Shown here: positions 651-63,755 of the stretch, piece by piece | Numbering within the stretch: position 1 is the stretch's first letter | Layout: every line of letters begins with the position of its first letter | Virus record (IMG/VR): IMGVR_UViG_3300045988_110372 | Coordinates: 1 to 64,000 of that record | Strand: one strand, 5' to 3' | Length of the DNA: 64,000 nucleotides | DNA from: a virus | Notes under the pieces: model-generated | What the model saw: only the letters and a program-made list of their open reading frames with translations | Database searches by the model: none | What the model was told of the DNA's origin: nothing | Position numbers and translations under genes: made by a program

Positions 651-2804
651 ATGGATATTGATGAGATAAAAAAGACATTAAATGTATTTCGTACAGACAA
701 TGGTCTTATTGAGATAAGGGTTTTTAACACAATTAATGGTAACGAAAATTACTCAGGTATATTTAATAATGAAGAATCTTTAATAAATGAAGTACAAAGA
801 TTCGACAAAGAACCTTACAATACATACTTTGTATTTAACGAATTAAAGGATGCTATGAGTGGTAGACCTCAGTTTAATAAACTATTAAAAGGGGTATCTG
901 CCGTAAAAGACCCTGATATTAAATATAGAAGATGGTTATTTCTTGATTTTGACCCTATAAGAGAAGGAGGTGTAAAAGATATTGCAAGCACAGAGGAAGA
1001 AATGGAATACGCACACCTTAAAGCCGTAGAAGTTTATAGGTATTTGATGTCTATTGGTTTCCCTAAACCTATTGTTTGTAAATCAGGGAATGGCTTCCAT
1101 GAGCTTTTCCGTATTGATAATTGGGATAATTCAGAAGAAATAGACAAGGAGTTTAGCGACTTTTTGAATTATATCTCTATGAGGTTTACTGATAGTAAGG
1201 TGGATTGTGATATAAAGAATAAGAACGCATCAAGATTAACTAAATTTTATTCGTCTAAATCAAGAAAGGGAGGTGATACACAAGAAAGACCTCATAGATA
1301 TAGTAAGATAATTTCAATACCTGAAAATATTGAATATCTAAGTTATGATGTTTTTAAGTCTGTTGTAAACGAGTATAGAAAGATTAATAACCCTGAACCA
1401 ATAGAGCCTAAGATTAACAATTCTCAATATCAAAGAGGGGTTAATAAAAAGCCATTTGATATAGATGAGTTTTTGTCTGTCAATGGGATTGAGGTTTTAA
1501 AGGAAGAAAGACTGTCGGATAAATCAAGAAAAATTGTATTAAAGACATGCCCTTTTCATCCTGAGCATGGGAAAGATTCTGCAATATACGTTTCAGACAA
1601 AGGTATAGTTTTCACGTGTTTTCATAGCGGATGTCAAGGTAATACGTGGCGTGATTTGCGTCTTAAATTTGACCCGCACGCATACGATTATGAGAATAGA
1701 CCACCACAACAATATATGCAGCCGCAAGGCAGGTATATGCAGCCTCAAAAGAAAAAATATGAAATAAAAGAGGAAAGCCCTGAATTGGGTAAGAAGTGGT
1801 TTAGCATGTCTGATATTAAGAAGGTGGATTTATCAAGTCTTATGCACATAAAGACAGGATATACTGAACTTGATAAGAAGATTGTAGGTCTTTATGAGGG
1901 AGAAATAACAATTATATCGGGCAGTAACTCTTCGGGGAAATCTTCATGGATAAACAATCTTATCCTGAATGTTATACAGCAGAATTTCAAGGTAGCTTTA
2001 TGGAGTGGTGAGTTAAGACCTGATGTATTAAAGACTTGGATTTCTTTAAGCGCAGCAGGGAATAAATATATTCAACCGAGTAAAAAAGATGAGGGTAAAT
2101 ATTATGTTCCTGAATATGTTTCTCAAAAGATAGACTATTGGATGGATGGAAAGTTTTTTCTTTACAATAATGAATACACGAATAAATGGGAACAGATATT
2201 TAATGATATGAAGGAGCTTGTCAAGTTAGGGGTCAAGTTGTTTATTCTTGATAACTTATTTTCTTTGGATATTGATATATTTGAGGGGGATAAGAATAAC
2301 AAGCAGAAAGAATTAATTCTCCAACTTTGTGACTTTGTAAAAAAGAATAAAATCCACATCATGCTTGTCGCTCACCCAAGAAAGGTTACTACTTTTTTGA
2401 GAAAAACAGATATTAGTGGAAGTTCCGATTTAACCAATGCCGCTTCCAATGTGTTTATCGTACACAGAGTAAATAACGACTTTTTAAAGACAGGTGGAGA
2501 GTTCTTGGGTAATACGGTTGTCCAGCAATATTCAATGTTTGGCAACTGCATAGAAATTTGCAAAAACAGATTGTACGGAGTTGTGGATTGTCTTGTTGGA
2601 ATGTACTATGAAATACCTACAAGAAGATTTAAAAATACAGAAAGTGAGGATATTCACTACGGTTGGGAAGAAGAGCCAGTCCAGCAATCACTGAGTTACG
2701 AGCAGCATCAGTCTGACTTAGAGAAATTTCAGCAGCAATACGACAATGCAAGTAGTAATTTACCTTTTGGTTATACGATAGAAAAAGGAGAAATACCATT
2801 TTAG
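651..2804 (+). CDS. bifunctional AEP-type DNA primase-polymerase / SF4 (DnaB-like) helicase
   Basis: The N-terminal part has the AEP motifs 'WLFLDFDP' (DxD) and 'KSGNGFHELF' (sGxGxH). The centre has a Zn-binding 'CPFHPEH...CFHSGC'. The C-terminal part has Walker A 'GSNSSGKSS' and Walker B 'KLFILDNLF'. The gene ends with TAG at 2802-2804. Confidence 0.85.
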   Translation: MDIDEIKKTLNVFRTDNGLIEIRVFNTINGNENYSGIFNNEESLINEVQRFDKEPYNTYFVFNELKDAMSGRPQFNKLLKGVSAVKDPDIKYRRWLFLDFDPIREGGVKDIASTEEEMEYAHLKAVEVYRYLMSIGFPKPIVCKSGNGFHELFRIDNWDNSEEIDKEFSDFLNYISMRFTDSKVDCDIKNKNASRLTKFYSSKSRKGGDTQERPHRYSKIISIPENIEYLSYDVFKSVVNEYRKINNPEPIEPKINNSQYQRGVNKKPFDIDEFLSVNGIEVLKEERLSDKSRKIVLKTCPFHPEHGKDSAIYVSDKGIVFTCFHSGCQGNTWRDLRLKFDPHAYDYENRPPQQYMQPQGRYMQPQKKKYEIKEESPELGKKWFSMSDIKKVDLSSLMHIKTGYTELDKKIVGLYEGEITIISGSNSSGKSSWINNLILNVIQQNFKVALWSGELRPDVLKTWISLSAAGNKYIQPSKKDEGKYYVPEYVSQKIDYWMDGKFFLYNNEYTNKWEQIFNDMKELVKLGVKLFILDNLFSLDIDIFEGDKNNKQKELILQLCDFVKKNKIHIMLVAHPRKVTTFLRKTDISGSSDLTNAASNVFIVHRVNNDFLKTGGEFLGNTVVQQYSMFGNCIEICKNRLYGVVDCLVGMYYEIPTRRFKNTESEDIHYGWEEEPVQQSLSYEQHQSDLEKFQQQYDNASSNLPFGYTIEKGEIPF

Positions 2805-8554: not shown

Positions 8555-8628
8555 GGGCAAAATGGGTGAGTGATTTAGCCAACACTCTGCAAAAGTGTTT
8601 TACAGCGGTTTGAATCCGCTTTTGCCCT
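8555..8628 (+). tRNA. tRNA-Cys (anticodon GCA), slightly non-canonical
   Basis: Hand-folded cloverleaf:
- Acceptor stem GGGCAAA/TTTGCCC (8555-61 with 8621-27).
- Anticodon stem ACACT/AGTGT with loop CTGCAAA, giving U33 and GCA at 8589-91.
- 5-nt variable loop.
- T stem AGCGG/CCGCT with loop TTTGAAT.
- D stem with one G-G mismatch and a D loop lacking GG.
- No encoded CCA. Confidence 0.6.
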
Positions 8629-8714
8629 CTATGTTTTCATAGATGTTGTTTTTCACCATGAGCAGGATTTGTGTTCTCATATTATTACAGTTTAAATTTT
8701 TACGCAAAAGGGTT

Positions 8715-11065: not shown

Positions 11066-14000
11066 TTAAAATGTTCCAAGTTTGGGTGATTCGTAATAAA
11101 CAGCTATAAATACTTTTGCATCCATAAGAGACCAGTTGTTATAGTTACTTGTCGTACTATATTCAAAGTATGTACTATAAATGTTTTCAATTACTGCAAC
11201 AGTTAATTTTCCATTAGATAAAGCTGTTATCTGAACATGATAAAGTGTATTCCCTATATTGTGTGTTACTCTATATAGACCTGTAGCTTTTTTTGTTACA
11301 GAAAATTCGATAGGAGTTCCTGAACTGTTAGGAATAGAAGCGCCAATAGATCTATTTAGATATCCCGAAGCTGTTATATATGCAGAGAATATACACTTAG
11401 CATAATGCACAACAGCACAAACATTACTACCCCCCTGAGTTCTTCCACAATACGTAAGCTGTATTCCTTTTGTGTTAACAGTAAGACCTGTACCATTTTC
11501 ATCATATATCATCAAGCCATTATACATCAATGTAGTTTTCAAAGTCTTATCTGTACTTTTAGTTTTACCTCTAAGGAACAAAGATTCAGGTGTTAATGTA
11601 CCTTGCAAAGTAGAACCATCCGAATAAACCGTTGTCAAGTCCATTTGCGCATAATATCGTGTCGTTCCAACAGTAGCCTTATTGGATATCAGTTTGAACA
11701 GTACATTACTTCCTTGCGTCATTTTCATGCCGTCCTTGTTGACAAGTGCGCTTACACCATCTGTATTTGAAGCATTAAGTGTTTTTACTACAAGAGCATC
11801 CGCTTCAATCAGACTTGTACGAATATGTCCTCCCTCAATGATTGTATTTCCGGCTGTTGCTGCGGAAACCATATCAGCATAGCTGGCATATCCTAACTTT
11901 TTAGCCATATCCTCTTTAGAGGAATTTATACTAGAAGTGACATCGCCTGAGTCAGCTTTATTATTGATTGTGCTCTGCAAACTACTATTAAGAGAACTGA
12001 ATGTAATCTTTCCTTGTAAAGATACATCTTTTCCGAAAATACTTATGGCGTTCTCTTTAACGGTAATTCCTGTCTTAATCTCTTCTGTTGTGGAATAATC
12101 GCTAGGTGCAGCACTCCACGGTGTTGACCTTTCTCCTTTTTCGACTTTGAGATTCCAAACACGGAAGTAACCTATTGGTTTATTGTCTTGTAACACAGAA
12201 GAAATGTAATAAAAAACCATTTCAATATTAGAATCTTTGATATTTGTATCACTACCACCTAAAGTTAAGGGAGGAGTAATAATTTTACCTGTACCATTAG
12301 ATTTTAAATTAGGAATACTATGAGCAGTCCAACCAAATTTATCGTCAAACTGAACCCTAAAATATGAGTTCTCCGTTGCGTTCCAAATAAGATTTCTTGC
12401 TTCGTATTCAAATGAAATGGTTACTATATCTCCTTTTTTTAAACCTGACGTTTTGTATAATGTATTTCTTTGATTTGCTACATTATTAAAAGTAGTCAAT
12501 CTTTTTTCGTTGCTTGTCAATAAAGCATAGTTTTGATTAATAGATTCATCTACTTTGTAGGCATAAACTTTTGTAAAGTAAGCTTCGCCTAAATTAGATG
12601 TCCCTTTAATACTGAAACATATACTTGCAGAAATAGAATCTGTTGGTATTGTTATATATCCTGACGAGGTATTCCATCCTTTTGTTTTGGATTCTATTGC
12701 ATCAAGCTCTATGTATTTGTATGTTTCATTTTTCAGTTTTATTCTAAGACCTACTGTTACATTATAATTACACTTCTCCGCATTAACTAAGGCAGTTACA
12801 TAATATTTTTCTCCTACATTAACATTAACGTATGACTTAGCATAAATCGTACCAACTGTACTTTTCATACAATAACTTGTAGGACAACTATTGTTGGCAG
12901 TTGCCGCACTAACTCGTGAACCTCCGGTATAAAGCAAGCTATAATTAGCATCATCGAAGCAACTGTCAGGAACAATGTTGGTTATCTTGCTCACACTTGT
13001 AACCTTAGAAGAAATACCAATCCAAATGTTATCAGGTTGTAACGCGACTTCTGCTTTGCTTACACGTGTAGTCAGCGCTGACAAATTGTTATTAGTCTGA
13101 TTCAGGTTGTTCTGAACGGTAGTTACTTCTGTCTTTTCGGCTTTTAGCAATAATTTTTCTGAGTGCTGTTCTATGACTGTCTGCATAGATTTTACAGTCG
13201 TAATCGTTGCGTACTTCTTGTCTGCATTTTGTCCGGCTGTTGTTATAGCATCATTCTTAGCCTTATTTGCCTTGTTGGTAGCATCTGTAGCAGCAGTAGA
13301 TATAGCGTCCTGCTTTGCCTTATTTGCCTTGGAAGTTGCGTCAGCAGAGGCAGTACTTATTGCTGAAGTCTTTGCATCATTCGCCTTTTTGGTTGCATCG
13401 CTCGCAGCAGTATTAATTATTTCCTGCTTAATAGTAGTAATTTCAGTAGAAGAAACCTTACTATTAATTTCACCTTCTAATACACTGAATTGTGCCGTAA
13501 CTTCTTTTTTATATTCAGTCAAAGCGTTTTCCGAATCTTCGGGAGCAGGTGACCAGTCTGTAGATTTAGTTCCTGTTTCAAGTTTCCAATTACCTTCAAC
13601 ATTACCTTTTATTAAGGTAAACTTTATATATTTTGTAGTTTCTAAAGTTTGGAAAGTCTTTGTTTTTGGAGATGTCCAAGTAATACCAGGCAAACAAATG
13701 CCTAACCATTTTTTGCTACTATCGTAACAATGAATAGAGCCTGAATGTCTATCTACCGATATACTTTTGTATAATGTTAGTGTATAATATCCATATTTTG
13801 CAGGGATAAAATCTTTTGAGCAGTAATTGTATCCATCTTTTACACTGTAATAATTTCCGTTTTCTGCTTGTATATAACCATCTACTATATTAGATATAGC
13901 AATTAGATTTCTACCTCCAATCTGAATATTATTAATAGCATTATTGGTGTATTCTTTTGAAGAAGTTACAGCAGCAGTAATACTGTTGTTGGTCTGCTCA

Positions 14001-17000
14001 AACTGTGAACTTACCGTTTTCTTATAAGAACTTAAATCGTTGGCTATACCTTGCGCATAATCACGTGCCGCATTTGAGATAGCGGTTAAAGCATTTGTTC
14101 TCTGTGTATAATACGTTGTCTGCTTTGTAGCAAAATCAGAAGGAATAGCAATTGTTTCAGGAGATGAAGCCGTAAGAGTTACCAACACAGCACGATAAGT
14201 CGTGTGTGCATTGTTGTAATTTGTAGGAGTACCTAGATTGTACTTACTATATCCGTTTGCAATCTGTGTCTTGTCTGCGTCAATTCTAGCTATTTCTTCT
14301 TTCAATGACTGCTTTTCTGTTGGAGAAATAGAACCGTCAGAAGCCCAACTATCTAATCGGCTCTTAGCTTCATCAGCATCACTTTGTGCATTGTTTGCTG
14401 CCGCTTTTGCGTTGGCAGCATCCTTTATTGCCTGATTAGCCTTTTCTTGTGCCGCATCTGCAGTTTGTTGTGCAGCATCTGCAAGGGATTTAGCCTTTGC
14501 TGATATAGCGTTCAATAAATCGGTGCGAGCATCGTAGTAATCCTTAAACTTGCTTCTGAATGCAGCTCCTGATATATTACTTGTTGTTGAAAGACTTGAA
14601 AGCAACGGTGTTATATAAGCACTTAGCGTATTATAAGCCGTATCGTAAGCAGTCCTGCTTACTCCGTACTTGTCAGCACTTGCATTGTTTTTAGGCTTTT
14701 CAGAAACAATAATATCCCATTCTTTTTTTGTTTCCTGCTTTTCCTGAGCAGTCAGCTTGTTGTCATTTGCTATATCAGACAATAAGGCGTTTGCAGTTGC
14801 CGCGCTTTGAACGGCGTTATTGGCTGTCTGCTGTGCACTATCAGCTGCTTGTTTAGCTGCATCTGCCGCAGCCTGAGCCTGATTTGCCTTAGTATCATCC
14901 GTATACTTAGAAGCAAGTTCCCAGTGCTCAATAGAAAACTGAGCATTTGCTTGTTTGGCAGTCTTGCATCGAAGCAAATCATTCTTGTAGCTTCCGTATG
15001 TAGCATTAACCCACAAATCTCCAATATCATACACCGAGGCATTAGACGGGGTAGTCACAAATACCCTTCTTTTTCCATCTGCCGTGTCCTGCGCTTTTTT
15101 AGCGTCAGCCAAAGCTTTTGTGATATCAGAATCGGTTATTACCTGCCATGTATACTTACTACCACTCACTTGAAAGCGATACGCTTTTCCATTACCATCA
15201 TAATACAAGTCGCCTAAATGTACGTTCTTGTCTTCGTTTGTAGTCCAATTTACAGCAGGCTCGTTACTTAATGTAGGAACTGGTTCATAAAACCATGTTT
15301 CAATAGCACCGTCTATTTGGTTTTTAACAGCTTCTAAATCCTTAGATAACTGATTTACAAATGAAATGTTTTCAGATAAATCAGATATAGCATCGTCTAC
15401 TTTTGTATTGACTTCCCCTACTGCGTTGTCGATATAGTCCTTTACGCTTTCTCCCGAACTGAATCTTATTGCATCGGCAATAATCATTACTTCCGAACGA
15501 GAAAATGAAACAAATTCTTTTCCGTCCAAAGAATAGGAATTGATACCACGATACAATTTAAAATACGGTGCATCATTGCCGTATGCAGACAAGATAATAG
15601 CTGCCTGACGTGTAGCATCAGACTTATTACCCAACTGTACGATATCATCGCCAGCCTTAGGTTCAGTAGAACCTGTATCGCAATCGGTTTTAGAAAGGTC
15701 TATATAGTTATCTCCTGTGCCTACAACAGCACGCCAATAGTAGGTATTAGTGACGTTCTCATTAACACCTTCCTTAACGTTAAAAGTCTGTGCCCTTGCC
15801 AAGTCACCGACAACAAATTCCTGCTCTATTGTTCTTTCTCCGTCCGTGTTCTCAAAATAGCAACGATAGAAATCTCCTTTATCCTCTATCTTAACGCAAG
15901 ACATAGATGCCGGAGTCAGAATAATCTGACCGCCAACATGCTTTATCTGTTGTATAAGCAACCGAATAAATGTGGCTACCTTTCTGACAAGCATACGGTC
16001 TACCTCCAGATAACTGTCACCGTTTTCGTCTTTCTTCAGACAGAATCCAGCCCCTAACGCACCAGTAGAGAAATTAGCTGATTCTATTCCGCTTCGTACA
16101 AGTATAGAAAGTAAATCTGCAACACCCTGTTCGTCAATATTGGCTCCTTTCAAGCCTTTTTTATAGTCGCCTATTGCCAACGCACCTCTAAGCAACAAAT
16201 TAAGCAGCTCTGCTGCTCCGTCCGCTGAAATCTTTGCACCTGACTTTTTGCTTAGATATGTACCTATTTCCAAACCGTCAATTAGCTTTACAAGGTCGTT
16301 GAATGTCTTTTCTCCCTTTGCTCTGTCGGCTACGTCCTTTCTAATAAAGTATTTGTTCCCTTGACTTAGTATGTCACCGCTTCCTATATTGGAAAGTACG
16401 TCCTGCTTAACACCGTCAAGCATTGTTTGTAATGAGTTCTGACCGATAGAAAGCGTATCTGCCAAGTTTACTTCTATTTCAGGCAATGGCGAATCTGAAC
16501 TCATTGTATATGTAAAGTTGTCTACATAGAAAGTATACTGTACCTTGTTGTATTCTACTATAAGCCGTGAATTTTCGTTCAACTGTTCAAGAATATCAGG
16601 ATGTTCTGCAAAGAATATACGGCTGAACTTTATGGAGAAGTTAAACTTCTCGCTGTTGTTTTCTGCCATATACTGAATGAGGTATTCTTTAAGGTCGTTT
16701 TCGGCTTTGTATATGTACGAATCGGGCATGTTTATGTTCAGTATGACAAATGTATCACCTGCTTTCGGTTTGAGGTTTTTTGATACATTAGGCATGACGT
16801 TTGTATAGGTTGTATCGTCTTTCTTTAGTGCAACCCATACTTCATAGTTTACCGTATCGTTCTGTCTGTCTTGCGGTGTTTCTTTCTGCAATCCGTCACG
16901 ACCGCATCTTACGTTTCCGTTCTCGTCACGTAACAGATTCCCGCTATCGTCTACCTGAACCAAATTCTTCTGTGTTTCATCTCCTGCTCCTATTTCAAAG

Positions 17001-18835
17001 GTACAAGAGCCGCACATACCGCTTGTAAACGAAAATTCCATATTTCCGCTTTCGGATGCTTGGTCGAATAGATTGAATCCGTAATCTCCGTTGAACTTTC
17101 TAAGCTTTCCGAAGAAGTAAGGATGAACGTATTCGTTTTTCTCGCCGTCAAACTCATCACTGTCATTTTCGTCATACGCAAATTCGGTGAACATGTCTAT
17201 TCTAAGTCCTTCCGCATTTGTCATTCCCTTGATAGACGGTTTAATATCTTCTGCGGTAACTTTGCCCTCTAAAGGATTGCCCTCTGAATATACGTTCTCA
17301 AATGTGTAGTATTCGTCTGAATCAGGCTTCTGATATGTGTCGTTCAGCGCATTGTAGAATCTTTGCTCGCCTTCCGTTTCTCTGTATATAGGCGGCATAA
17401 GTTCCGTACAATAAGGTATCTGCTTGCCTATATTCTGTGTAAAGTAGTCACCTACTACTAGTTTAGGGCTTCCGTTAAGACTTATACCTATTTCTTCAAG
17501 CTTGACTTCCTTTCCGTTCAAGTCCCAATATTCATAGTATGAACTAGGGAATGAAGCCTCAAAGTAGAATTTGGCACTTGTCACAGAATCACTTACAATG
17601 CCAGTGTAGGAAACCTTGAATACAACCTTGATTGTGTAGTCACCTGCTGCTACCTTATCTCCGTTGTTCAGGACTTTGTACTGTGTATCTTCTTCGCCAT
17701 ATCCCTTAATCGTAAATGACGGTGAACTTAAAGCACCCAAGCTGAAATTAATAGGCATAAAGGCGGTATTGACTGTAATGCTTGCATCATGCAGTATCGT
17801 TACGTTTACAAGGAATGTAGCCGTACTTTTATAAGCACTGCCTTCTTTTCTTACTGGTATTGATATTTCAGAATTTGCTTCGTAGTCGACAAATGTTGAC
17901 GAATTGTAAAACTCGTAGAAATTTATGACAACGACATTTTCGCCACTTTTCTTTGAGTAGATACATTTGTCAGTCGAACCTACTTTCTCGGCAAATTTGA
18001 CCGCATCTACAAGCGATAAATCGGATTGTGACAGACCTTGATTGCCTGAATATACATTTATTGAAACTTCACCCTTTGGTGTCTTGTTCGGATAGTAGTA
18101 AGGGATATTGTCACTGCTTCCTACACCAGTAATTCTGTTTACAAGGTTGTAGTTTGCGTTCTCTTTTGATACGGAAAGCAAAGCACCGTCAATGCCGTAC
18201 TTCATCACCGTAGGTATTGCGTTCTGCTCATATCCTACGTGTATGGTCTTTCCGACAAAATAGTAAGGCAGCTTATATACATTGTATATTTCCTGCAAAG
18301 CTTCAAGAATGTATTTGTCCTCGAAAGATACAAGCTGGCTTTCAGAAGTTATGCCCTCGTCAATTACGGCTGTATAGTCTATCTTTGAGTAGGACATGGA
18401 AGCATTAAGTCTAGCGACAAATTGTGTTATGTCACCCATGAACTGTACTTTCAGACTGTTGGAAACAACACCGTCAATCGTGCTGTCGCCCTGAACCGCA
18501 TCTATGAAATAGGTATGATTGAGGACTTCACGTTCGGATTTGAGAGTAACCGAATGTTCGTATCTTTCGTCCTCGTTGCTTTTAGACGATGAGGGTGTAT
18601 CTTTTACATAGAACTTCTGACCGTCAAATGAAGCATACACCTTGTTCGTCCAAAGCTTGTCGAGGCAAAGTCTGTGCTTTACGGTAGCCTCTATTGTGGG
18701 TACGCCGCCCATTCTTCCGTTTGCATCGTATTTGAAATCGCCTATGACAATCTGTTCCGTCTTGTTTGGGAACGGTGTATCCTCGATTCCGTCTACGAAT
18801 GTGTATAACTTTAAAATCTTCTCCATTGTGCACAT
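11066..18835 (-). CDS. giant tail fibre / host-recognition structural protein (2589 aa)
   Basis: A single uninterrupted 7.8-kb ORF.
- The N-terminal region resembles phage minor-structural / tail-tip proteins.
- The centre holds long Ala/Gln/Lys coiled coils such as 'AADAAKQAADSAQQTANNAVQ'.
- There are three 19-aa tandem repeats.
- Several beta-rich putative binding domains follow.
- A motif 'GDLYYDGNGKAYRF...WQ' is typical of phage fibre proteins.
An alternative ATG lies at 18826. Confidence 0.8.
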   Translation of the reverse strand: MCTMEKILKLYTFVDGIEDTPFPNKTEQIVIGDFKYDANGRMGGVPTIEATVKHRLCLDKLWTNKVYASFDGQKFYVKDTPSSSKSNEDERYEHSVTLKSEREVLNHTYFIDAVQGDSTIDGVVSNSLKVQFMGDITQFVARLNASMSYSKIDYTAVIDEGITSESQLVSFEDKYILEALQEIYNVYKLPYYFVGKTIHVGYEQNAIPTVMKYGIDGALLSVSKENANYNLVNRITGVGSSDNIPYYYPNKTPKGEVSINVYSGNQGLSQSDLSLVDAVKFAEKVGSTDKCIYSKKSGENVVVINFYEFYNSSTFVDYEANSEISIPVRKEGSAYKSTATFLVNVTILHDASITVNTAFMPINFSLGALSSPSFTIKGYGEEDTQYKVLNNGDKVAAGDYTIKVVFKVSYTGIVSDSVTSAKFYFEASFPSSYYEYWDLNGKEVKLEEIGISLNGSPKLVVGDYFTQNIGKQIPYCTELMPPIYRETEGEQRFYNALNDTYQKPDSDEYYTFENVYSEGNPLEGKVTAEDIKPSIKGMTNAEGLRIDMFTEFAYDENDSDEFDGEKNEYVHPYFFGKLRKFNGDYGFNLFDQASESGNMEFSFTSGMCGSCTFEIGAGDETQKNLVQVDDSGNLLRDENGNVRCGRDGLQKETPQDRQNDTVNYEVWVALKKDDTTYTNVMPNVSKNLKPKAGDTFVILNINMPDSYIYKAENDLKEYLIQYMAENNSEKFNFSIKFSRIFFAEHPDILEQLNENSRLIVEYNKVQYTFYVDNFTYTMSSDSPLPEIEVNLADTLSIGQNSLQTMLDGVKQDVLSNIGSGDILSQGNKYFIRKDVADRAKGEKTFNDLVKLIDGLEIGTYLSKKSGAKISADGAAELLNLLLRGALAIGDYKKGLKGANIDEQGVADLLSILVRSGIESANFSTGALGAGFCLKKDENGDSYLEVDRMLVRKVATFIRLLIQQIKHVGGQIILTPASMSCVKIEDKGDFYRCYFENTDGERTIEQEFVVGDLARAQTFNVKEGVNENVTNTYYWRAVVGTGDNYIDLSKTDCDTGSTEPKAGDDIVQLGNKSDATRQAAIILSAYGNDAPYFKLYRGINSYSLDGKEFVSFSRSEVMIIADAIRFSSGESVKDYIDNAVGEVNTKVDDAISDLSENISFVNQLSKDLEAVKNQIDGAIETWFYEPVPTLSNEPAVNWTTNEDKNVHLGDLYYDGNGKAYRFQVSGSKYTWQVITDSDITKALADAKKAQDTADGKRRVFVTTPSNASVYDIGDLWVNATYGSYKNDLLRCKTAKQANAQFSIEHWELASKYTDDTKANQAQAAADAAKQAADSAQQTANNAVQSAATANALLSDIANDNKLTAQEKQETKKEWDIIVSEKPKNNASADKYGVSRTAYDTAYNTLSAYITPLLSSLSTTSNISGAAFRSKFKDYYDARTDLLNAISAKAKSLADAAQQTADAAQEKANQAIKDAANAKAAANNAQSDADEAKSRLDSWASDGSISPTEKQSLKEEIARIDADKTQIANGYSKYNLGTPTNYNNAHTTYRAVLVTLTASSPETIAIPSDFATKQTTYYTQRTNALTAISNAARDYAQGIANDLSSYKKTVSSQFEQTNNSITAAVTSSKEYTNNAINNIQIGGRNLIAISNIVDGYIQAENGNYYSVKDGYNYCSKDFIPAKYGYYTLTLYKSISVDRHSGSIHCYDSSKKWLGICLPGITWTSPKTKTFQTLETTKYIKFTLIKGNVEGNWKLETGTKSTDWSPAPEDSENALTEYKKEVTAQFSVLEGEINSKVSSTEITTIKQEIINTAASDATKKANDAKTSAISTASADATSKANKAKQDAISTAATDATNKANKAKNDAITTAGQNADKKYATITTVKSMQTVIEQHSEKLLLKAEKTEVTTVQNNLNQTNNNLSALTTRVSKAEVALQPDNIWIGISSKVTSVSKITNIVPDSCFDDANYSLLYTGGSRVSAATANNSCPTSYCMKSTVGTIYAKSYVNVNVGEKYYVTALVNAEKCNYNVTVGLRIKLKNETYKYIELDAIESKTKGWNTSSGYITIPTDSISASICFSIKGTSNLGEAYFTKVYAYKVDESINQNYALLTSNEKRLTTFNNVANQRNTLYKTSGLKKGDIVTISFEYEARNLIWNATENSYFRVQFDDKFGWTAHSIPNLKSNGTGKIITPPLTLGGSDTNIKDSNIEMVFYYISSVLQDNKPIGYFRVWNLKVEKGERSTPWSAAPSDYSTTEEIKTGITVKENAISIFGKDVSLQGKITFSSLNSSLQSTINNKADSGDVTSSINSSKEDMAKKLGYASYADMVSAATAGNTIIEGGHIRTSLIEADALVVKTLNASNTDGVSALVNKDGMKMTQGSNVLFKLISNKATVGTTRYYAQMDLTTVYSDGSTLQGTLTPESLFLRGKTKSTDKTLKTTLMYNGLMIYDENGTGLTVNTKGIQLTYCGRTQGGSNVCAVVHYAKCIFSAYITASGYLNRSIGASIPNSSGTPIEFSVTKKATGLYRVTHNIGNTLYHVQITALSNGKLTVAVIENIYSTYFEYSTTSNYNNWSLMDAKVFIAVYYESPKLGTF
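13230..13405 (-). repeat. 3 x 57-nt in-frame tandem repeat inside the tail fibre gene
   Basis: The period of 57 nt is seen from 'GCCTTATTTGCCTTG' recurring at about 13260 and about 13317, with a diverged third copy at about 13374. It encodes 'ATKKANDAKTSAISTASAD / ATSKANKAKQDAISTAATD / ATNKANKAKNDAITTAGQN'. Confidence 0.7.
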
Positions 18836-27104: not shown

Positions 27105-29768
27105 CTAACTCCAAAAACTATCGTCAAATACGTTTGCCTTATCCAATCCTAAATCGTTATCCTCTTCCAACGCCACTTCCGAAGCTATAAGCTCCTGACC
27201 GTATTCGTATTTCAACAGAGGAAGCATCCTCATTGCAATAGGGTCTAGCAAGTCCATAGACCTGTTCTTTCCCAACATCTGATTCATTTCCTTCTTGTTG
27301 AAAAGCGTCTTTTTACCACTGGGCAAACCTTTCCATCTCACGACAGAACACTCTTCTATAAATTCCGTCTTTATCGTAATGGGATTGCTCATTCTCTTGT
27401 GAGGATAAATAGCTTCCGCAATAGAATCCTCAAATGAAAGCAAACCTCTCTTTATAACCTCTACCAATCGTCCGTAGCACTCGTCCTTCATGTTGTAGTG
27501 CATACGCCAATACAACCCATTTGGTCTGTTGTATGATTTAAAACCTATCGCACCGTTGATATAGTCGTTTATATAAGCAGCCCTAATAGCATCGTAGATT
27601 ATATGATTGTCAGGTATTCCGTGTCTTTCTGCCATCTGCATCAGCATCTCTGCGTTAAGTCGTGGCGTACTTGTACATAATATCTTATAGTCTATGATAT
27701 GCAGACCGTTCCAAACAAGTATTACCGTGTTATCGTCACCAGTGTCAGCCAAGTCTGCCGTTATCCATTTGTCGTTGTTCTTTCGTGGGTCGTTGTTGAA
27801 AACGCTTTCGGCAGTAGCGTATGGGATAGGTGCTTCTGCATCGTTTTTTAAAGATACATTCCAATTACCTTCAATAAGCTGTTGTGCCTGCCTTCCACCA
27901 ACTGCTGCAACACTACCAGCGTAGTCCATATTGTTACCGATAGAAGCCTTGTTCTCTGACATTCTACCTAAATAGAATGTAAAGCTTTTTATAAGGTTCT
28001 TATATGTAAACCCACCACCTAAAGATTTTATCTTTCTATCAATATCGTCCCTGCATTTTCTGTAAACTTCTTCTTTTGAATCACCCCAAACAACATCGTC
28101 TACATTCTCTCCTTGAAGATAGAAGTATCTCACGACACCGTTTCTATCTTCCATTATTTGCCCATCCAATCCAACATACCAATCAATGAATTTTCTAACC
28201 CAGCAGTCTTTTTCGGGGTTTGTAGTTCCTCTGAATTTGCCCGACCATTTGGCTTTACCACGGTTACGTGATAGTAGATATTTGAACGTAGAAAACTCAT
28301 ACGAAGTCAATTCGTCCATATATATTAAGTCGTACTGGCTACCTTTCCAAGTTTCAGTTACCTTTCGTATATTTTCATCGTTAATCTGCCTGAAATCAAC
28401 AAACGCCCCTGACGGAAACCTTACACGTGGAGGGTCTGTTGATTTCACTTCAATGTGATTACCATAGGCAGATTTAAAATCGTCTGTCAAAGAACCACCA
28501 CCTTTCAATTCCGAGAATGTTCTTCGTGTGAAACATGCACGGAAATTTGGGTCTAATGATGGCTCGGCAACAGAAAGGATTGCAGCAAAAGACTTTCCGC
28601 AGTTCCTTGTTATAACGTATCCATCTGTTAAATATATATGCTCGTTACCCGAAACATTTATACATCTAACATTTTTTTTGCCGACAAGTTTATAATCCAT
28701 AATGCTTAGCATTGTGCTACATTTTCTGTCTTTTTCAGTTATAGCCTTATTTTTTTTTCTATCTAAGCAAAACAAATCTTTATCATTCTTAGTCCACACT
28801 AACAATCCGTAAGATTTAGCACAGTTTACCTCTTTCCCATTTTGTATTCTTTTTGTTTTATCTGTAATGTGTATTGAACATCTTCCACCTATACTCCATA
28901 TTAATTCTTGAATATCATTTGCCAAATTTTCACTTGTTGTCCTGTAAGAAACTCTGCTTTTCCTATTTGTGCTAGATTGGGAGCAGCAGCCATCTGTATC
29001 GAACAGCCCTCTTATAAGCTCCATTCTGTCTTCTATACTTGAATACTTATATATGTTAGGTATAAATTTATCATAAGACAATTTGCCCCACAATCCAAGT
29101 TCCTTCAAATACTCAACAACTTCTTTATTTCTGATGCAATAATGCAGGCTATTCTTATTTTTACTTTCTTTAACTATATCATATCCTAACCCTTTTATTC
29201 TTTCAATAGTTTGATAATCCTTAGAATGGCAAGCAAGGTCAGCTCTATGTAACTTATTAGATAAACAACCATCGCCTATTAGACAACCTAGTAAATACGG
29301 ATGTATTTTAAGATTATCTTTTTTGTAAAAAGATACAGGCTGAGTAAGAGGTATTCTCAATCTATTCACATGTCTTTTATCCCTATTCTTAGATTTATCA
29401 ATATATTTTATAATATCTTCGGAAGAAATATCAATAATATTTCCATGCCTTTCTTTTACCATCCAACGGTGAGAAAGAGCACTCTGAACCTTCCTTCCAT
29501 CTTGTAACGTAAACTCAACAACATCTTGTAGTCCTTTGTCTATTACAAAATTAACCACTTGATTTCCACCCATTGGATTATGTATTATATCTCCTACCTT
29601 TATATCTCCCATTTTTCTAAATCCGTCAGGAGTTGATATTAAGGCATCCATTGGTTGAGGGTTGAGTACCCCTCCGCCTATAACCACGTCTATATTGCTG
29701 CGGACGAAATTTTCTTGAAATCCTTCCTGCGGTCTGATAATTCTTATTTCACTTTCTTCATTTGCCAT
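27105..29768 (-). CDS. terL: terminase large subunit, interrupted by an intein
   Basis: The exteins give a P-loop 'VVIGGG|CGKSFAAIL', a Walker B 'YDLIYMDELTSYE' and a C-terminal nuclease-like half. A 356-aa insertion has Hint and LAGLIDADG motifs. Confidence 0.9.
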   Translation of the reverse strand: MANEESEIRIIRPQEGFQENFVRSNIDVVIGGGVLNPQPMDALISTPDGFRKMGDIKVGDIIHNPMGGNQVVNFVIDKGLQDVVEFTLQDGRKVQSALSHRWMVKERHGNIIDISSEDIIKYIDKSKNRDKRHVNRLRIPLTQPVSFYKKDNLKIHPYLLGCLIGDGCLSNKLHRADLACHSKDYQTIERIKGLGYDIVKESKNKNSLHYCIRNKEVVEYLKELGLWGKLSYDKFIPNIYKYSSIEDRMELIRGLFDTDGCCSQSSTNRKSRVSYRTTSENLANDIQELIWSIGGRCSIHITDKTKRIQNGKEVNCAKSYGLLVWTKNDKDLFCLDRKKNKAITEKDRKCSTMLSIMDYKLVGKKNVRCINVSGNEHIYLTDGYVITRNCGKSFAAILSVAEPSLDPNFRACFTRRTFSELKGGGSLTDDFKSAYGNHIEVKSTDPPRVRFPSGAFVDFRQINDENIRKVTETWKGSQYDLIYMDELTSYEFSTFKYLLSRNRGKAKWSGKFRGTTNPEKDCWVRKFIDWYVGLDGQIMEDRNGVVRYFYLQGENVDDVVWGDSKEEVYRKCRDDIDRKIKSLGGGFTYKNLIKSFTFYLGRMSENKASIGNNMDYAGSVAAVGGRQAQQLIEGNWNVSLKNDAEAPIPYATAESVFNNDPRKNNDKWITADLADTGDDNTVILVWNGLHIIDYKILCTSTPRLNAEMLMQMAERHGIPDNHIIYDAIRAAYINDYINGAIGFKSYNRPNGLYWRMHYNMKDECYGRLVEVIKRGLLSFEDSIAEAIYPHKRMSNPITIKTEFIEECSVVRWKGLPSGKKTLFNKKEMNQMLGKNRSMDLLDPIAMRMLPLLKYEYGQELIASEVALEEDNDLGLDKANVFDDSFWS
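28602..29669 (-). mobile_element. intein (Hint domain plus LAGLIDADG homing endonuclease) in the TerL P-loop, class-3-like
   Basis: The element spans residues 34-389.
- N-terminal Hint block: 'ALISTPDGFRKMGDIKVGD'.
- Block B: 'ALSHRW'.
- LAGLIDADG motifs: 'LLGCLIGDGCL' and 'LIRGLFDTDGCC'.
- Blocks F and G: 'VRCINVSGNEHIYLTDGYVITRN', followed by Cys at +1.
The N-terminal boundary is inferred from restoring the sequence GGGCGKS. Confidence 0.75.
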
Positions 29769-30763
29769 TAATCACTCTCCCACACTTCGTAGGCTAGCAA
29801 TGATTTGTATGCTTTTTCAGAAATCAAGCCTTTACTGAAATAATCTTCGGCAATGTCTTTAATATATGCTTCCTTTTCTTTCTTATAAGCTTGAAATGCT
29901 TCTTTTTCAGTATTGAACCGCCCCAAGTAAACTTGCTCTCCACCTTTTGATAATCTTGAACTAAAAGTTCCTTGTTTCGTTTTACTGACACCAATCATTG
30001 TGTCGCCACGATTTTTATCTGATTTTGTAAATAACGTATTAATAAATCTAGGTACTATCAGACATGTGTCGGGGCTGTAAGCCTTGTTTCCGTGAACCAT
30101 AATATCCTTGTCAAGTTCATATCCGTCTTTGTACCCATTTTCAGGATTTTCAAACCATTCCCTGAAATTTTTATAATGAAGCCATTCTTCGCAAACATAA
30201 GCATCTTTATATGTCAGATTCTCGGCTTTATAATCTTCGCAATAACATCTTCTAAGCATGTGCATCCACGCTGAATATGCTGGATAGTATTTACCGTCTT
30301 TATCTACACAGAATCTTTCATCATCGTTTATCCCAGCACCGTAAACCAATTCCCCTCTTGAAGATTTAGATATAGCCTCTTTCGCATAACATTCGCAACC
30401 GCTTCCTCTTGATATATGACTATTAGGAATTATCCAAAATTCCTTGCCACACCTTTTACATATTAAGCAAACTTTAGTATGTGAATCTACATACTCTACC
30501 TTTGAATAGTCATATCTACCTCCGTGTATTTTCTTTGACTTTTCTATAAAGTATTCCTTACCCATTACAACGCCGCTACACTTCGCACATTTGCACCCCT
30601 GAAGATGTATTCTTGGTAATACCCAAAATTCTCCGTGTTCGGGGCAGATAACACATACTTTTGTGTTGTTGTTTACATATTCAACCTTTGAGTAATCATA
30701 CTCATCTCCGTGAACTTTTCTTGCTTCTGCAATAAACTGTTCCGTTGTTTTTCTTTTTCCCAT
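29768..30763 (-). CDS. free-standing homing-endonuclease-like protein (2 Zn-ribbon repeats plus an AP2-type domain)
   Basis: Two 'HG..YDYSKVEY...TKVC.IC..HGEFW...C.C' repeats are followed by 'CEEWLHYKNFREWF...LDKDIMVHGNKAYSPDTCLIVP' and the AP2-like 'VYLGRFNTEKEAFQAY'. It is paralogous to 6431-7129 and to the 19461-20494 pseudogene. Confidence 0.7.
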   Translation of the reverse strand: MGKRKTTEQFIAEARKVHGDEYDYSKVEYVNNNTKVCVICPEHGEFWVLPRIHLQGCKCAKCSGVVMGKEYFIEKSKKIHGGRYDYSKVEYVDSHTKVCLICKRCGKEFWIIPNSHISRGSGCECYAKEAISKSSRGELVYGAGINDDERFCVDKDGKYYPAYSAWMHMLRRCYCEDYKAENLTYKDAYVCEEWLHYKNFREWFENPENGYKDGYELDKDIMVHGNKAYSPDTCLIVPRFINTLFTKSDKNRGDTMIGVSKTKQGTFSSRLSKGGEQVYLGRFNTEKEAFQAYKKEKEAYIKDIAEDYFSKGLISEKAYKSLLAYEVWESD

Positions 30764-62789: not shown

Positions 62790-63755
62790 TTATTTCATTT
62801 CACTGATTAATGCATTTCCACAAGTAATTCTATCACTATCTTCTTCTTTTGAAGGAACAAATACGATGACATCCCATCCTTCTTCTAGCAGCGGCTGTTC
62901 GAATTTGCGGTACACATCATAATCAGCATATCCAGTTACTTCAAAACCATTTTCAATAGCTGAATTTGTTTCATGAATTGGGGTAATTTTTACAATAAAC
63001 TTATTCTTGTCAAATAACTCAGAGAGTTTCTTTGCATCAAGAATAGTCTGTGCAGTTACAGGAAAATTCAAAGTATATTTTCTACCTTTGGGCATTGGTA
63101 AATCTTCAGCTAATTCTGATATTTCAGTTAAAGATAAACTTTTTCTATCAAATAACTGATTTCTTTGTTCGTCACCAGTTGAATTGATAGAGAACTGAAG
63201 TCCTGCTTCACCATTGTAAAAATCATTTTTTATTTCGCACCAAGTAAGAATATACTGTTTCAATTTCTTATTTGCTTTTGGTAGCATAGTAGATACTACT
63301 GGATGAACAGTCTTTGCTTTTAATCCACAAGTCTTTACAAGTTCTTTCAGCATCATAGAAAAAGCCAGCACATTTTCATTCCAAGTTGGTTCTCCCATTC
63401 TTGCAAAGTGAACATTAAATCGTTCAGTTTCTCTTACATCTTCATTTTTGATAATCATTTTAATTTGATAAGCAAGTTCATTTACTGAAACATTACCAAA
63501 GAAGCCAAATTTAGGAACATCACAGAATTTACATTTCATCGGGCAACCTTTCTGTGTAGAGATAGTAGCAACCCATTTATTACGCAAATCTACTTCTGTG
63601 TTAGCTACTCCGTTGATTTCTTTTGTCAGACCGAGAAAGTCAGCCTTGATGTTATTTTCTTTTCCGTAATCACCTACTGTAAGAAATTCAAGTTTCTTTT
63701 CGGTATCTACATAAATCTTTCCTGTGTGAGTTTTAATTGTTTTCATATTATACAT
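62790..63755 (-). CDS. radical SAM enzyme, RlmN/Cfr-like
   Basis: 'ISTQKGCPMKCKFCDVPKFGFFGNVSVNELAYQI' has the CxxxCxxC cluster in an RlmN-like context. It also has 'ARMGEPTWN', 'KITPIHET' and a C-terminal 'DRITCGNAL', comparable to RlmN 'DIDAACGQL'. Confidence 0.7.
   Translation of the reverse strand: MYNMKTIKTHTGKIYVDTEKKLEFLTVGDYGKENNIKADFLGLTKEINGVANTEVDLRNKWVATISTQKGCPMKCKFCDVPKFGFFGNVSVNELAYQIKMIIKNEDVRETERFNVHFARMGEPTWNENVLAFSMMLKELVKTCGLKAKTVHPVVSTMLPKANKKLKQYILTWCEIKNDFYNGEAGLQFSINSTGDEQRNQLFDRKSLSLTEISELAEDLPMPKGRKYTLNFPVTAQTILDAKKLSELFDKNKFIVKITPIHETNSAIENGFEVTGYADYDVYRKFEQPLLEEGWDVIVFVPSKEEDSDRITCGNALISEMK

Follow-up and report, generated by a model that had tools for sequence, protein, structure and literature searches.

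We analysed a 64,000-nucleotide stretch of viral DNA (the window), which comprises positions 1 to 64,000 of the IMG/VR virus record IMGVR_UViG_3300045988_110372. Within it, a gene for a terminase large subunit (TerL) carries a long insert in the P-loop of its ATPase, and the parts of this gene are listed in Table 1. The host protein was recognised as a terminase both by its N-terminal ATPase with a Walker A motif and by its packaging-gene surroundings. Pfam placed Terminase_6N at residues 387-532 (4e-6, above the gathering score) and LAGLIDADG_3 at residues 249-302 (1.5e-10), and in NCBIfam the precursor was matched only by the intein portions of intein-containing DnaB, RecA, and GyrA models. 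As set out below, the insert in the TerL P-loop is very probably a class 3 intein that is mobile and contains a LAGLIDADG homing endonuclease.

Table 1. Coordinates of the TerL precursor gene and of the parts of its intein in the window (residues are those of the precursor unless marked as intein residues)
Feature	Position	Strand	Basis or remark
TerL precursor gene (N-extein, intein, and C-extein)	27105..29768	-	single intact open reading frame, 887 aa plus stop
N-extein, residues 1-36, ending with the first Walker A half G33-V-L-N36	29661..29768	-	intein-free alleles; LoVEphage P-loop
Intein P37-N389, 353 aa, HINT splicing domain and LAGLIDADG homing endonuclease	28602..29660	-	
Block A, intein residues 1-13, PQPMDALISTPDG; residue 1 is Pro37, a non-nucleophile	29622..29660	-	register from the 6BS8, 6RIX, and gp41-1 alignments
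Block B, residues 91-104, with Ala97 (B:7), His100 (B:10), and Trp102 (B:12)	29457..29498	-	alignment to H-Q-W of 6BS8/6RIX
LAGLIDADG homing endonuclease domain, residues ~150-350	28719..29321	-	Pfam LAGLIDADG_3; mini-intein alleles; PI-SceI fold match
LAGLIDADG motif 1, 'LLGCLIGDGCL', residues 159-169, with D166	29262-29294	-	
LAGLIDADG motif 2, residues 254-262, containing 'LFDTDGCC' (255-262), with D259	28983-29009	-	
Block F, residues 366-381, with Cys369 (F:4, proposed branch nucleophile) and His377 (F:13)	28626..28673	-	
Block G, residues 383-390, with Thr387 (G:5), Arg388 (G:6), Asn389 (G:7), and Cys390 (+1)	28599..28622	-	
C-extein, residues 390-887 plus stop, opening with the second Walker A half C390-G-K-S393	27105..28601	-	

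The boundaries of the insert were fixed with alleles that lack it. Using the conceptually spliced TerL (residues 1-36 plus 390-887, 534 aa) as a query, we found TerL alleles without an intein, 531-536 aa long and 76-81% identical to it (P0270, P0271, and P0273). Intein-free relatives carry the exact spliced junction ...VVIGGGVLNCGKSFAAILSVAEPS..., i.e. GGGVLNCGKS, and P0271 and P0273 read DVVIGGGVLNCGKSFAAILSVAEPSLDPNFRA, with N36 joined directly to C390. In the DNA of the empty site in L007, 70 of 90 positions were identical, as was the core CTCAAC↓TGCGGAAAG. Relatives whose intein lies three residues downstream display the N-extein 'GGGVLNCGK' without interruption (e.g. P0012). When the family profile was aligned with the solved intein 6BS8, its positions 4-14 (LDTPLPTPSGW) paired with intein positions 4-14, which makes P37 position 1, and the alignment with gp41-1 gave the same register. 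Since the empty-site alleles, the N-exteins of the neighbouring-site relatives, and the register of solved inteins agree, the N-terminal junction is N36↓P37. The insertion point thus falls between the third and fourth variable residues of Walker A, G-V-L-N↓C-G-K-S, and splicing would restore the motif G33-V-L-N36↓C390-G-K-S393, with the same P-loop length as in the intein-free TerL of the Bacteroides LoVEphage (ICGGCRGGSKT).

Other placements of the junctions were considered as well. A shift by one residue (L35↓N36...R388↓N389) fits the sequence equally, residues 36 and 389 both being Asn; this ambiguity was resolved because an intein requires a C-terminal Asn followed by a nucleophile at +1, and also by the alignment of position 1 with 6BS8. 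Junctions at G33↓V34 or a start at A42 were excluded by the empty-site alleles and the solved-intein register. We further noted at positions 29655-29669 (minus strand) that the DNA of the N-terminal junction reads CTCAAC↓CCTCAACCA, so that the final six extein bases recur one base into the intein. This repeat is probably due to chance (Leu-Asn versus Pro-Gln codons), though it lies exactly at the homing site.

An earlier reading of the letters alone, here called the original prediction, had proposed a TerL P-loop split by a class 3 intein. The strings it quoted ('VVIGGG', 'CGKSFAAIL', the two LAGLIDADG motifs, and the residues W102, C369, T387, R388, N389, and C390) are all present in the 887-aa open reading frame (ORF), and the insert was borne out as an intein by the empty-site alleles, the Pfam LAGLIDADG_3 match, and the profile matches to solved inteins. 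Its junctions needed revision: it had counted 356 aa from V34 and seen the start at 'ALISTPDG' (A42), whereas the N-extein ends in ...GGGVLN36 and the insert spans 353 aa, P37-N389, according to the empty-site alleles and the 6BS8 register. It had correctly noticed that the insert begins with neither Cys nor Ser, position 1 being Pro37, and that its C-terminus reads TRN↓C rather than HN↓C (R388-N389↓C390). The alignment to intein-free TerL homologues that it had called for, together with an alignment to solved inteins, fixed both junctions, revealed no Cys1 or Ser1 junction, and left blocks B, F, and G in register.

For the splicing domain we built a family alignment of the window protein and 120 metagenomic relatives that are 50-99% identical (n=121). 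The resulting profile matched solved inteins with E-values of 7e-15 to 7e-12, among them the class 3 inteins 6BS8 (Msm DnaBi1, 5.5e-13) and 6RIX/6RIY (Mch DnaB1, 3e-12 and 7e-12). It was in register with 6BS8 and 6RIX at position 1, H-x-W, V-R-C-x-x-V, and T-x-N; 'VRCINV' of the window paired with 'VRCVEV' of both structures, and H-R-W with HQW. The HINT fold with blocks A, B, F, and G appeared both in the profile and in the predicted model described below, and the C-terminal Asn is followed by a nucleophile at +1 (N389↓C390). As an in-frame insert whose removal restores a conserved host motif, and for which intein-free homologues exist, this element is a genuine intein, well beyond chance.

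The residues of the splicing blocks followed the class 3 pattern. Position 1 holds no Cys, Ser, or Thr nucleophile; Trp at B:12 stands two residues after His at B:10 (H100-R-W102), and Cys at F:4 and Thr at G:5 complete the Trp-Cys-Thr (WCT) signature. His100 (B:10), Trp102 (B:12), Cys369 (F:4), Thr387 (G:5), and Asn389 (G:7) were each invariant in 121/121 members. Position 1 was Pro in 104 members, as in the window, Ser in 9, Asp in 3, Ala in 2, Glu in 2, and Cys in 1, and because it varies in this way it is not under selection for a nucleophile. Other positions also varied: B:7 (Ala97 in the window) was Ala in 100, Asp in 10, Gly in 7, Cys in 2, and Ser in 2; F:13 (His377) was His in 118 and Ser, Asn, or Cys in one member each; G:6 (Arg388) was Cys in 80, Arg in 24, His in 11, Lys in 5, and Leu in 1. 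Invariant His, Trp, Cys, Thr, and Asn together with a variable position 1 are as would be expected if the block-F Cys, and not residue 1, starts the reaction. The Trp, Cys, and Thr that the original prediction had assigned to B:12, F:4, and G:5 were thereby aligned to those of characterised class 3 inteins. An exhaustive phmmer search of 1.84 billion representatives returned 15,224 matching clusters at E<=1e-3. Among the best 150 representative proteins, WCT was found in 164 of 171 complete intein domains and His B:10 and Asn G:7 in all 171.

To the fold we applied AlphaFold2 with the family alignment, which gave an intein model with a mean local confidence (pLDDT) of 90.4 and a global confidence (pTM) of 0.90. 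The best whole-chain matches of this model in the PDB were PI-SceI (E 6e-18, TMq 0.71), TliVMA, and PI-PfuI, and among mini-inteins the class 3 structures ranked first (TMt 0.77-0.81). The predicted endonuclease domain showed two LAGLIDADG motifs, each closing with a catalytic acidic residue, in a tandem alpha-beta-beta-alpha-beta-beta-alpha fold that matched PI-SceI and I-DmoI. The window protein has kept both of these aspartates; among full-length members, position 166 is Asp in 102/118 and position 259 in 118/118. The intein is also poorer in G and C than its exteins (GC content 32.1% against 40.7%; at third codon positions, GC3, 24.6% against 40.6%), which is consistent with a foreign origin or with different constraints.

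A survey of the TerL clade yielded 221 clusters, a sample biased by the queries used. No intein was present in 67 of them, and 108 carried a full intein at the site of the window (the N↓C site). Another three had a mini-intein at this site, in precursors of 670-676 aa without about residues 147-353, so that the endonuclease region is precisely missing from these natural alleles (P0006, P0010, and P0104). At the GK↓S/T site, 36 clusters carried a full intein and seven a mini-intein. Both junctions, the fold, the positions and conservation of the motifs, and the existence of empty-site and mini-intein alleles are shown directly by these analyses. The empty, full, and mini alleles, the intact aspartates, and the AT-richness fit a homing cycle that would be driven by the endonuclease. 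In such a cycle the enzyme would cut the intein-free TerL gene of co-infecting relatives around CTCAAC↓TGCGGAAAG, and repair would copy the intein in.

The N↓C-site inteins were monophyletic in a neighbour-joining (NJ) distance tree (100/100 bootstraps), and their nearest neighbours were THN↓T class 3 inteins from the GK↓T site of other terminases. An origin by site shift from the GK↓S/T-site inteins of the same clade found no support in this simple distance tree, joint monophyly being recovered in 0/100 NJ bootstraps. These different class 3 inteins occupy the classic GK↓S/T site of the same TerL clade, three residues further downstream (P0012, P0052, P0081, and others); their first residue is A, D, E, P, or L, their last three are THN, and S or T follows at +1. 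A class 3 intein at this site was also seen in the cultured Parabacteroides phages PF672P1/P2 (PF672P2: L002, 1363-4203), where the intein-bearing protein of PF672P2 is annotated merely as 'hypothetical protein'.

From the homologous inteins of Bethlehem DnaB, Msm/Mch DnaB, and Bvi IcmO (PMC2807308, PMC5222942, PMC7664689), we propose the following splicing pathway. With its P-loop broken, the 887-aa precursor should be inactive before splicing. In the first step, Cys369, activated by His100 and held by Trp102 and Thr387, would attack the carbonyl of Asn36 in the Asn36-Pro37 bond to form a block-F branched thioester. Cys390 (+1) would then take over the N-extein by trans-thioesterification, giving a block-G branch. 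Cyclisation of Asn389 would free the intein, probably with the assistance of His377 (F:13), because the usual penultimate His is Arg388 here. An S-to-N acyl shift would finally produce the Asn36-Cys390 peptide bond, restoring GVLNCGKS and an active terminase of 534 aa.

Several observations weigh against assigning this intein to class 3. Its +1 residue is Cys390 and not the Ser or Thr of the 2010 description, and a Cys at +1 would in principle permit a class 2-like direct attack. It ends in TRN instead of the class 3-typical THN, and Arg at G:6 (the penultimate position) and Ala at B:7 replace residues that normally assist catalysis. A WCT triplet alone does not prove the class 3 mechanism, as WCT grafted onto a class 1 intein gave no splicing (PMC7664689). 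Moreover, splicing, the block-F intermediate, cleavage by the endonuclease, and the order of the steps are deduced by comparison with characterised systems. The Cys at +1 does not exclude membership in class 3, because the definition was later widened by the Bvi IcmO intein, in which Cys+1 occurs with a demonstrated class 3 mechanism (PMC5222942); in the best-150 set, the +1 residue was Thr in 112, Ser in 54, and Cys in 5 domains. As for the assisting residues, in the prototype the penultimate His is nearly dispensable and B:7 is dispensable (PMC2807308), and the AceL NrdHF class 3 intein splices well without the histidines at G:6 and F:13 (PMC7891396). Cys+1, Arg where the penultimate residue is usually His, Ala as the B:7 residue, and the upstream-shifted insertion site are minority features of a class 3 intein, and Cys+1 and the shifted site had been overlooked in the original prediction.

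The insertion site and the +1 residue were found to co-vary strongly with the penultimate residue. Relative to the 'classic' GK↓S/T site (Kelley et al., PMC5050341), the insertion site G-x-x-x↓x-G-K-S is shifted upstream by three residues. Across the 221 TerL clusters, G:6 at the N↓C site was Cys in 80, Arg in 23, Lys in 5, His in 2, and Leu in 1, whereas at the GK↓S/T site it was His in 43/43. His at G:6 thus accompanies Cys+1 in only 2/111 N↓C-site inteins and Ser or Thr+1 in 43/43, and most N↓C-site members have three Cys in the active site (F:4, G:6, and +1). It may be asked whether the N↓C-site inteins, as a distinct monophyletic class 3 sub-lineage that moved three residues upstream, took up Cys+1, and almost lost the penultimate His, represent a mechanistic variant; we consider this unlikely.

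The main rival to the class 3 pathway, which we judge improbable, is a class 2-like route of the KlbA type, in which Cys390 would attack the Asn36-Pro37 bond directly and Cys369 would be merely structural. Class 2 inteins take exactly this shortcut (PMC2807308), all 112 members at the N↓C site have Cys at +1, and the loss of the penultimate His in the sub-clade indicates a remodelled C-terminal active site. However, a dispensable F:4 would leave unexplained why Cys F:4, Trp B:12, and Thr G:5 are invariant in 121/121 members, the closest relatives belong to the ordinary class 3 inteins with Ser or Thr at +1, and in Bvi IcmO the natural Cys+1 could not replace Cys F:4 (PMC5222942). We therefore retain the class 3 pathway.

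A decayed or non-splicing insertion, which would make the TerL gene a pseudogene or the insert a tolerated extra domain, is very improbable. Arg at G:6 and Ala at B:7 are off consensus, and mini-inteins and N166 variants in the clade indicate that decay of the endonuclease does occur. Yet a GxxxxGK[ST] motif interrupted by 353 residues can hardly be expected to bind ATP, the ORF is intact with all essential splicing residues invariant, and the splicing blocks are strongly conserved in the family. Moreover, at least 23 metagenomic contigs, mostly 50-200 kb long and drawn from different samples, encode the identical 887-aa protein. Since the allele persists in circulating phages despite a GxxxxGK[ST] motif split by 353 residues, efficient splicing seems implied. 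Lastly, a canonical class 1 intein with a misplaced Cys/Ser1 junction has next to no probability: the N-junction of the original prediction was indeed off by three residues and Ser or Cys occupies position 1 in 10/121 relatives, but the corrected junction gives Pro in the window and in 104/121, the empty-site alleles refute the class 1 reading, no Cys, Ser, or Thr lies at a junction compatible with the empty-site sequence, and F:4 is Cys instead of the class 1 Asp.

Class 3 inteins in TerL P-loops are of a kind already well known, and the novelty of the present one is modest. The prototype of the class is the DnaB intein of mycobacteriophage Bethlehem, with Pro1 and an obligatory Cys F:4 (Tori et al. 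2010, PMC2807308), and phage terminase large subunits, mostly in their ATPase P-loops, were among the class 3 hosts by 2010 in the same study. Mycobacteriophage TerL class 3 inteins with closely spaced P-loop sites have since been described (Kelley et al. 2016, PMC5050341), a catalogue of 1701 class 3 inteins shows LAGLIDADG domains in 82.5% (Hoffmann et al. 2020, PMC7891396), and actinophages have yielded 287, most of which reside in TerL and Cas4 (Gosselin et al. 2025, bioRxiv 10.1101/2025.01.02.630785). The statement in the original prediction that class 3 inteins are rare is thus outdated; its choice of a mycobacteriophage DnaB intein as the first one characterised was right, though the Pro1 that this prototype shares with the window intein had gone unremarked.

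With the Bethlehem DnaB intein, the window intein shares Pro1, His B:10, Trp B:12, Cys F:4, Thr G:5, and the C-terminal Asn, as well as the spacing of 8 residues from Cys F:4 to His F:13, an internal LAGLIDADG endonuclease, and a phage P-loop NTPase as host. Bethlehem H65, W67, C320, H328, T339, H340, and N341 (PMC2807308) correspond to H64, W66, C333, H341, T351, R352, and N353 of the window intein. Unlike it, the window intein resides in TerL and not in DnaB, has Cys instead of Thr at +1, Arg instead of His at G:6, and Ala instead of Ser at B:7, and interrupts Walker A ahead of its fourth variable residue rather than behind the Lys. The intein of Bvi IcmO (Burkholderia vietnamiensis; Tori and Perler 2016, PMC5222942) is likewise a WCT class 3 intein with a natural Cys+1, so that both branched intermediates would be thioesters. 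In contrast to the window intein, which has 353 aa with an endonuclease, interrupts a phage TerL, and is part of a clade of >100 clusters, it is a mini-intein of 142 aa in a bacterial plasmid IcmO gene. In the literature of 2016, the class 3 Cys+1 state was described as known from a single intein.

The TerL class 3 inteins of mycobacteriophages and actinophages (TerL1-c/-d/-e, PMC5050341; bioRxiv 10.1101/2025.01.02.630785) resemble the window intein in host type, location in the ATPase domain, WCT, and LAGLIDADG, and equally show several close insertion sites per TerL family and a patchy distribution pointing to homing; the window intein differs from them in its TerL family (Terminase_6N-like), its exact site, its Cys+1, and its non-His penultimate residue. 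Msm DnaBi1 (6BS8) and Mch DnaB1 (6RIX/6RIY) (PMC6195587, PMC7664689) were the best mini-intein matches in sequence and structure, and their Cys-His-Thr triad and Trp align with those of the window; unlike the window intein, both are mini-inteins that interrupt bacterial DnaB at its GK↓S site and end in THN↓S. PI-SceI (the Sce VMA1 intein, 1EF0/1VDE), the best whole-chain structural match of the predicted model, is similarly bifunctional, with HINT and LAGLIDADG domains, but is a eukaryotic class 1 intein (Cys1, Asp-type block F) that is only about 14-16% identical.

The surroundings of the gene were those of a phage packaging module. On the contigs with the identical TerL we found a conserved order of capsid genes, a DUF723/HNH gene, TerL, a 199-aa ORF, and an SPP1-type portal gene; in this order the portal lies two genes downstream of TerL, and a major capsid gene is nearby. 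The DUF723/HNH gene is a 331-aa ORF at 29768-30763 (minus strand) that directly precedes TerL, its stop overlapping the ATG of TerL. It matched HNH endonuclease families (phrog_953, 1.7e-69) and, in precomputed Pfam annotation, DUF723, and it contains repeated 'YDYSKVEYV..TKV..IC..HGEFW' modules. This gene stands beside full-intein (window), mini-intein (L008), and intein-free (L009) alleles, and is absent from intein-free L007. A linkage to the intein was ruled out by this co-occurrence with full, mini, and empty alleles and by the absence from L007. Given this distribution, the gene appears to encode a free-standing, independent homing endonuclease at this locus, or possibly an HNH protein associated with packaging.

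The best cultured relatives were Parabacteroides and Bacteroides phages at 26-30% protein identity. A megablast search of 24 kb against a phage collection gave no relevant annotated relative, and a single-protein scan of GTDB genomes for a prophage or host gave none. In a search of all six-frame ORFs of the window with the family hidden Markov model (HMM), TerL only was matched. A DnaB-like helicase of 717 aa (651-2804, plus strand) has an uninterrupted P-loop region and gave no match to the intein HMM. When the window was searched for RNA elements, such as group I introns, only one tRNA reached its gathering score; this phage-encoded tRNA-Cys (GCA), at 8555-8629 (plus strand), was the sole RNA gene detected. 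A giant ORF of 2589 aa (11066-18835, minus strand) had no informative Pfam match apart from a sub-threshold alanine-zipper, and a 321-aa ORF (62790-63755, minus strand) gave a weak, sub-threshold match to radical-SAM.

For the annotation of this common uncultivated phage, our results mean that the mature terminase would have 534 and not 887 aa, and that the Walker A loop appears 'missing' because the intein occupies it. What is new is the host, an uncultivated phage lineage of low GC content, together with a large sub-clade that combines Cys+1 with a shifted P-loop site and a remodelled G:6; to the known inteins this adds a metagenomic clade of >100 clusters at 90% identity of Cys+1 class 3 inteins. 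The current understanding of intein function is unchanged by this finding. Class 3 inteins that accept Cys at +1 and Asn at -1 could be useful in protein engineering, and the empty, full, and mini alleles at two sites three residues apart in one TerL clade, a clean natural series, could serve to study shifts of homing sites and the role of the penultimate residue. If the co-variation at the N↓C site reflects an altered chemistry, these inteins may promote Asn cyclisation and thioester transfer in a different way; alternatively, splicing might be redox-sensitive and gate DNA packaging, as has been proposed for the Msm DnaBi1 intein.

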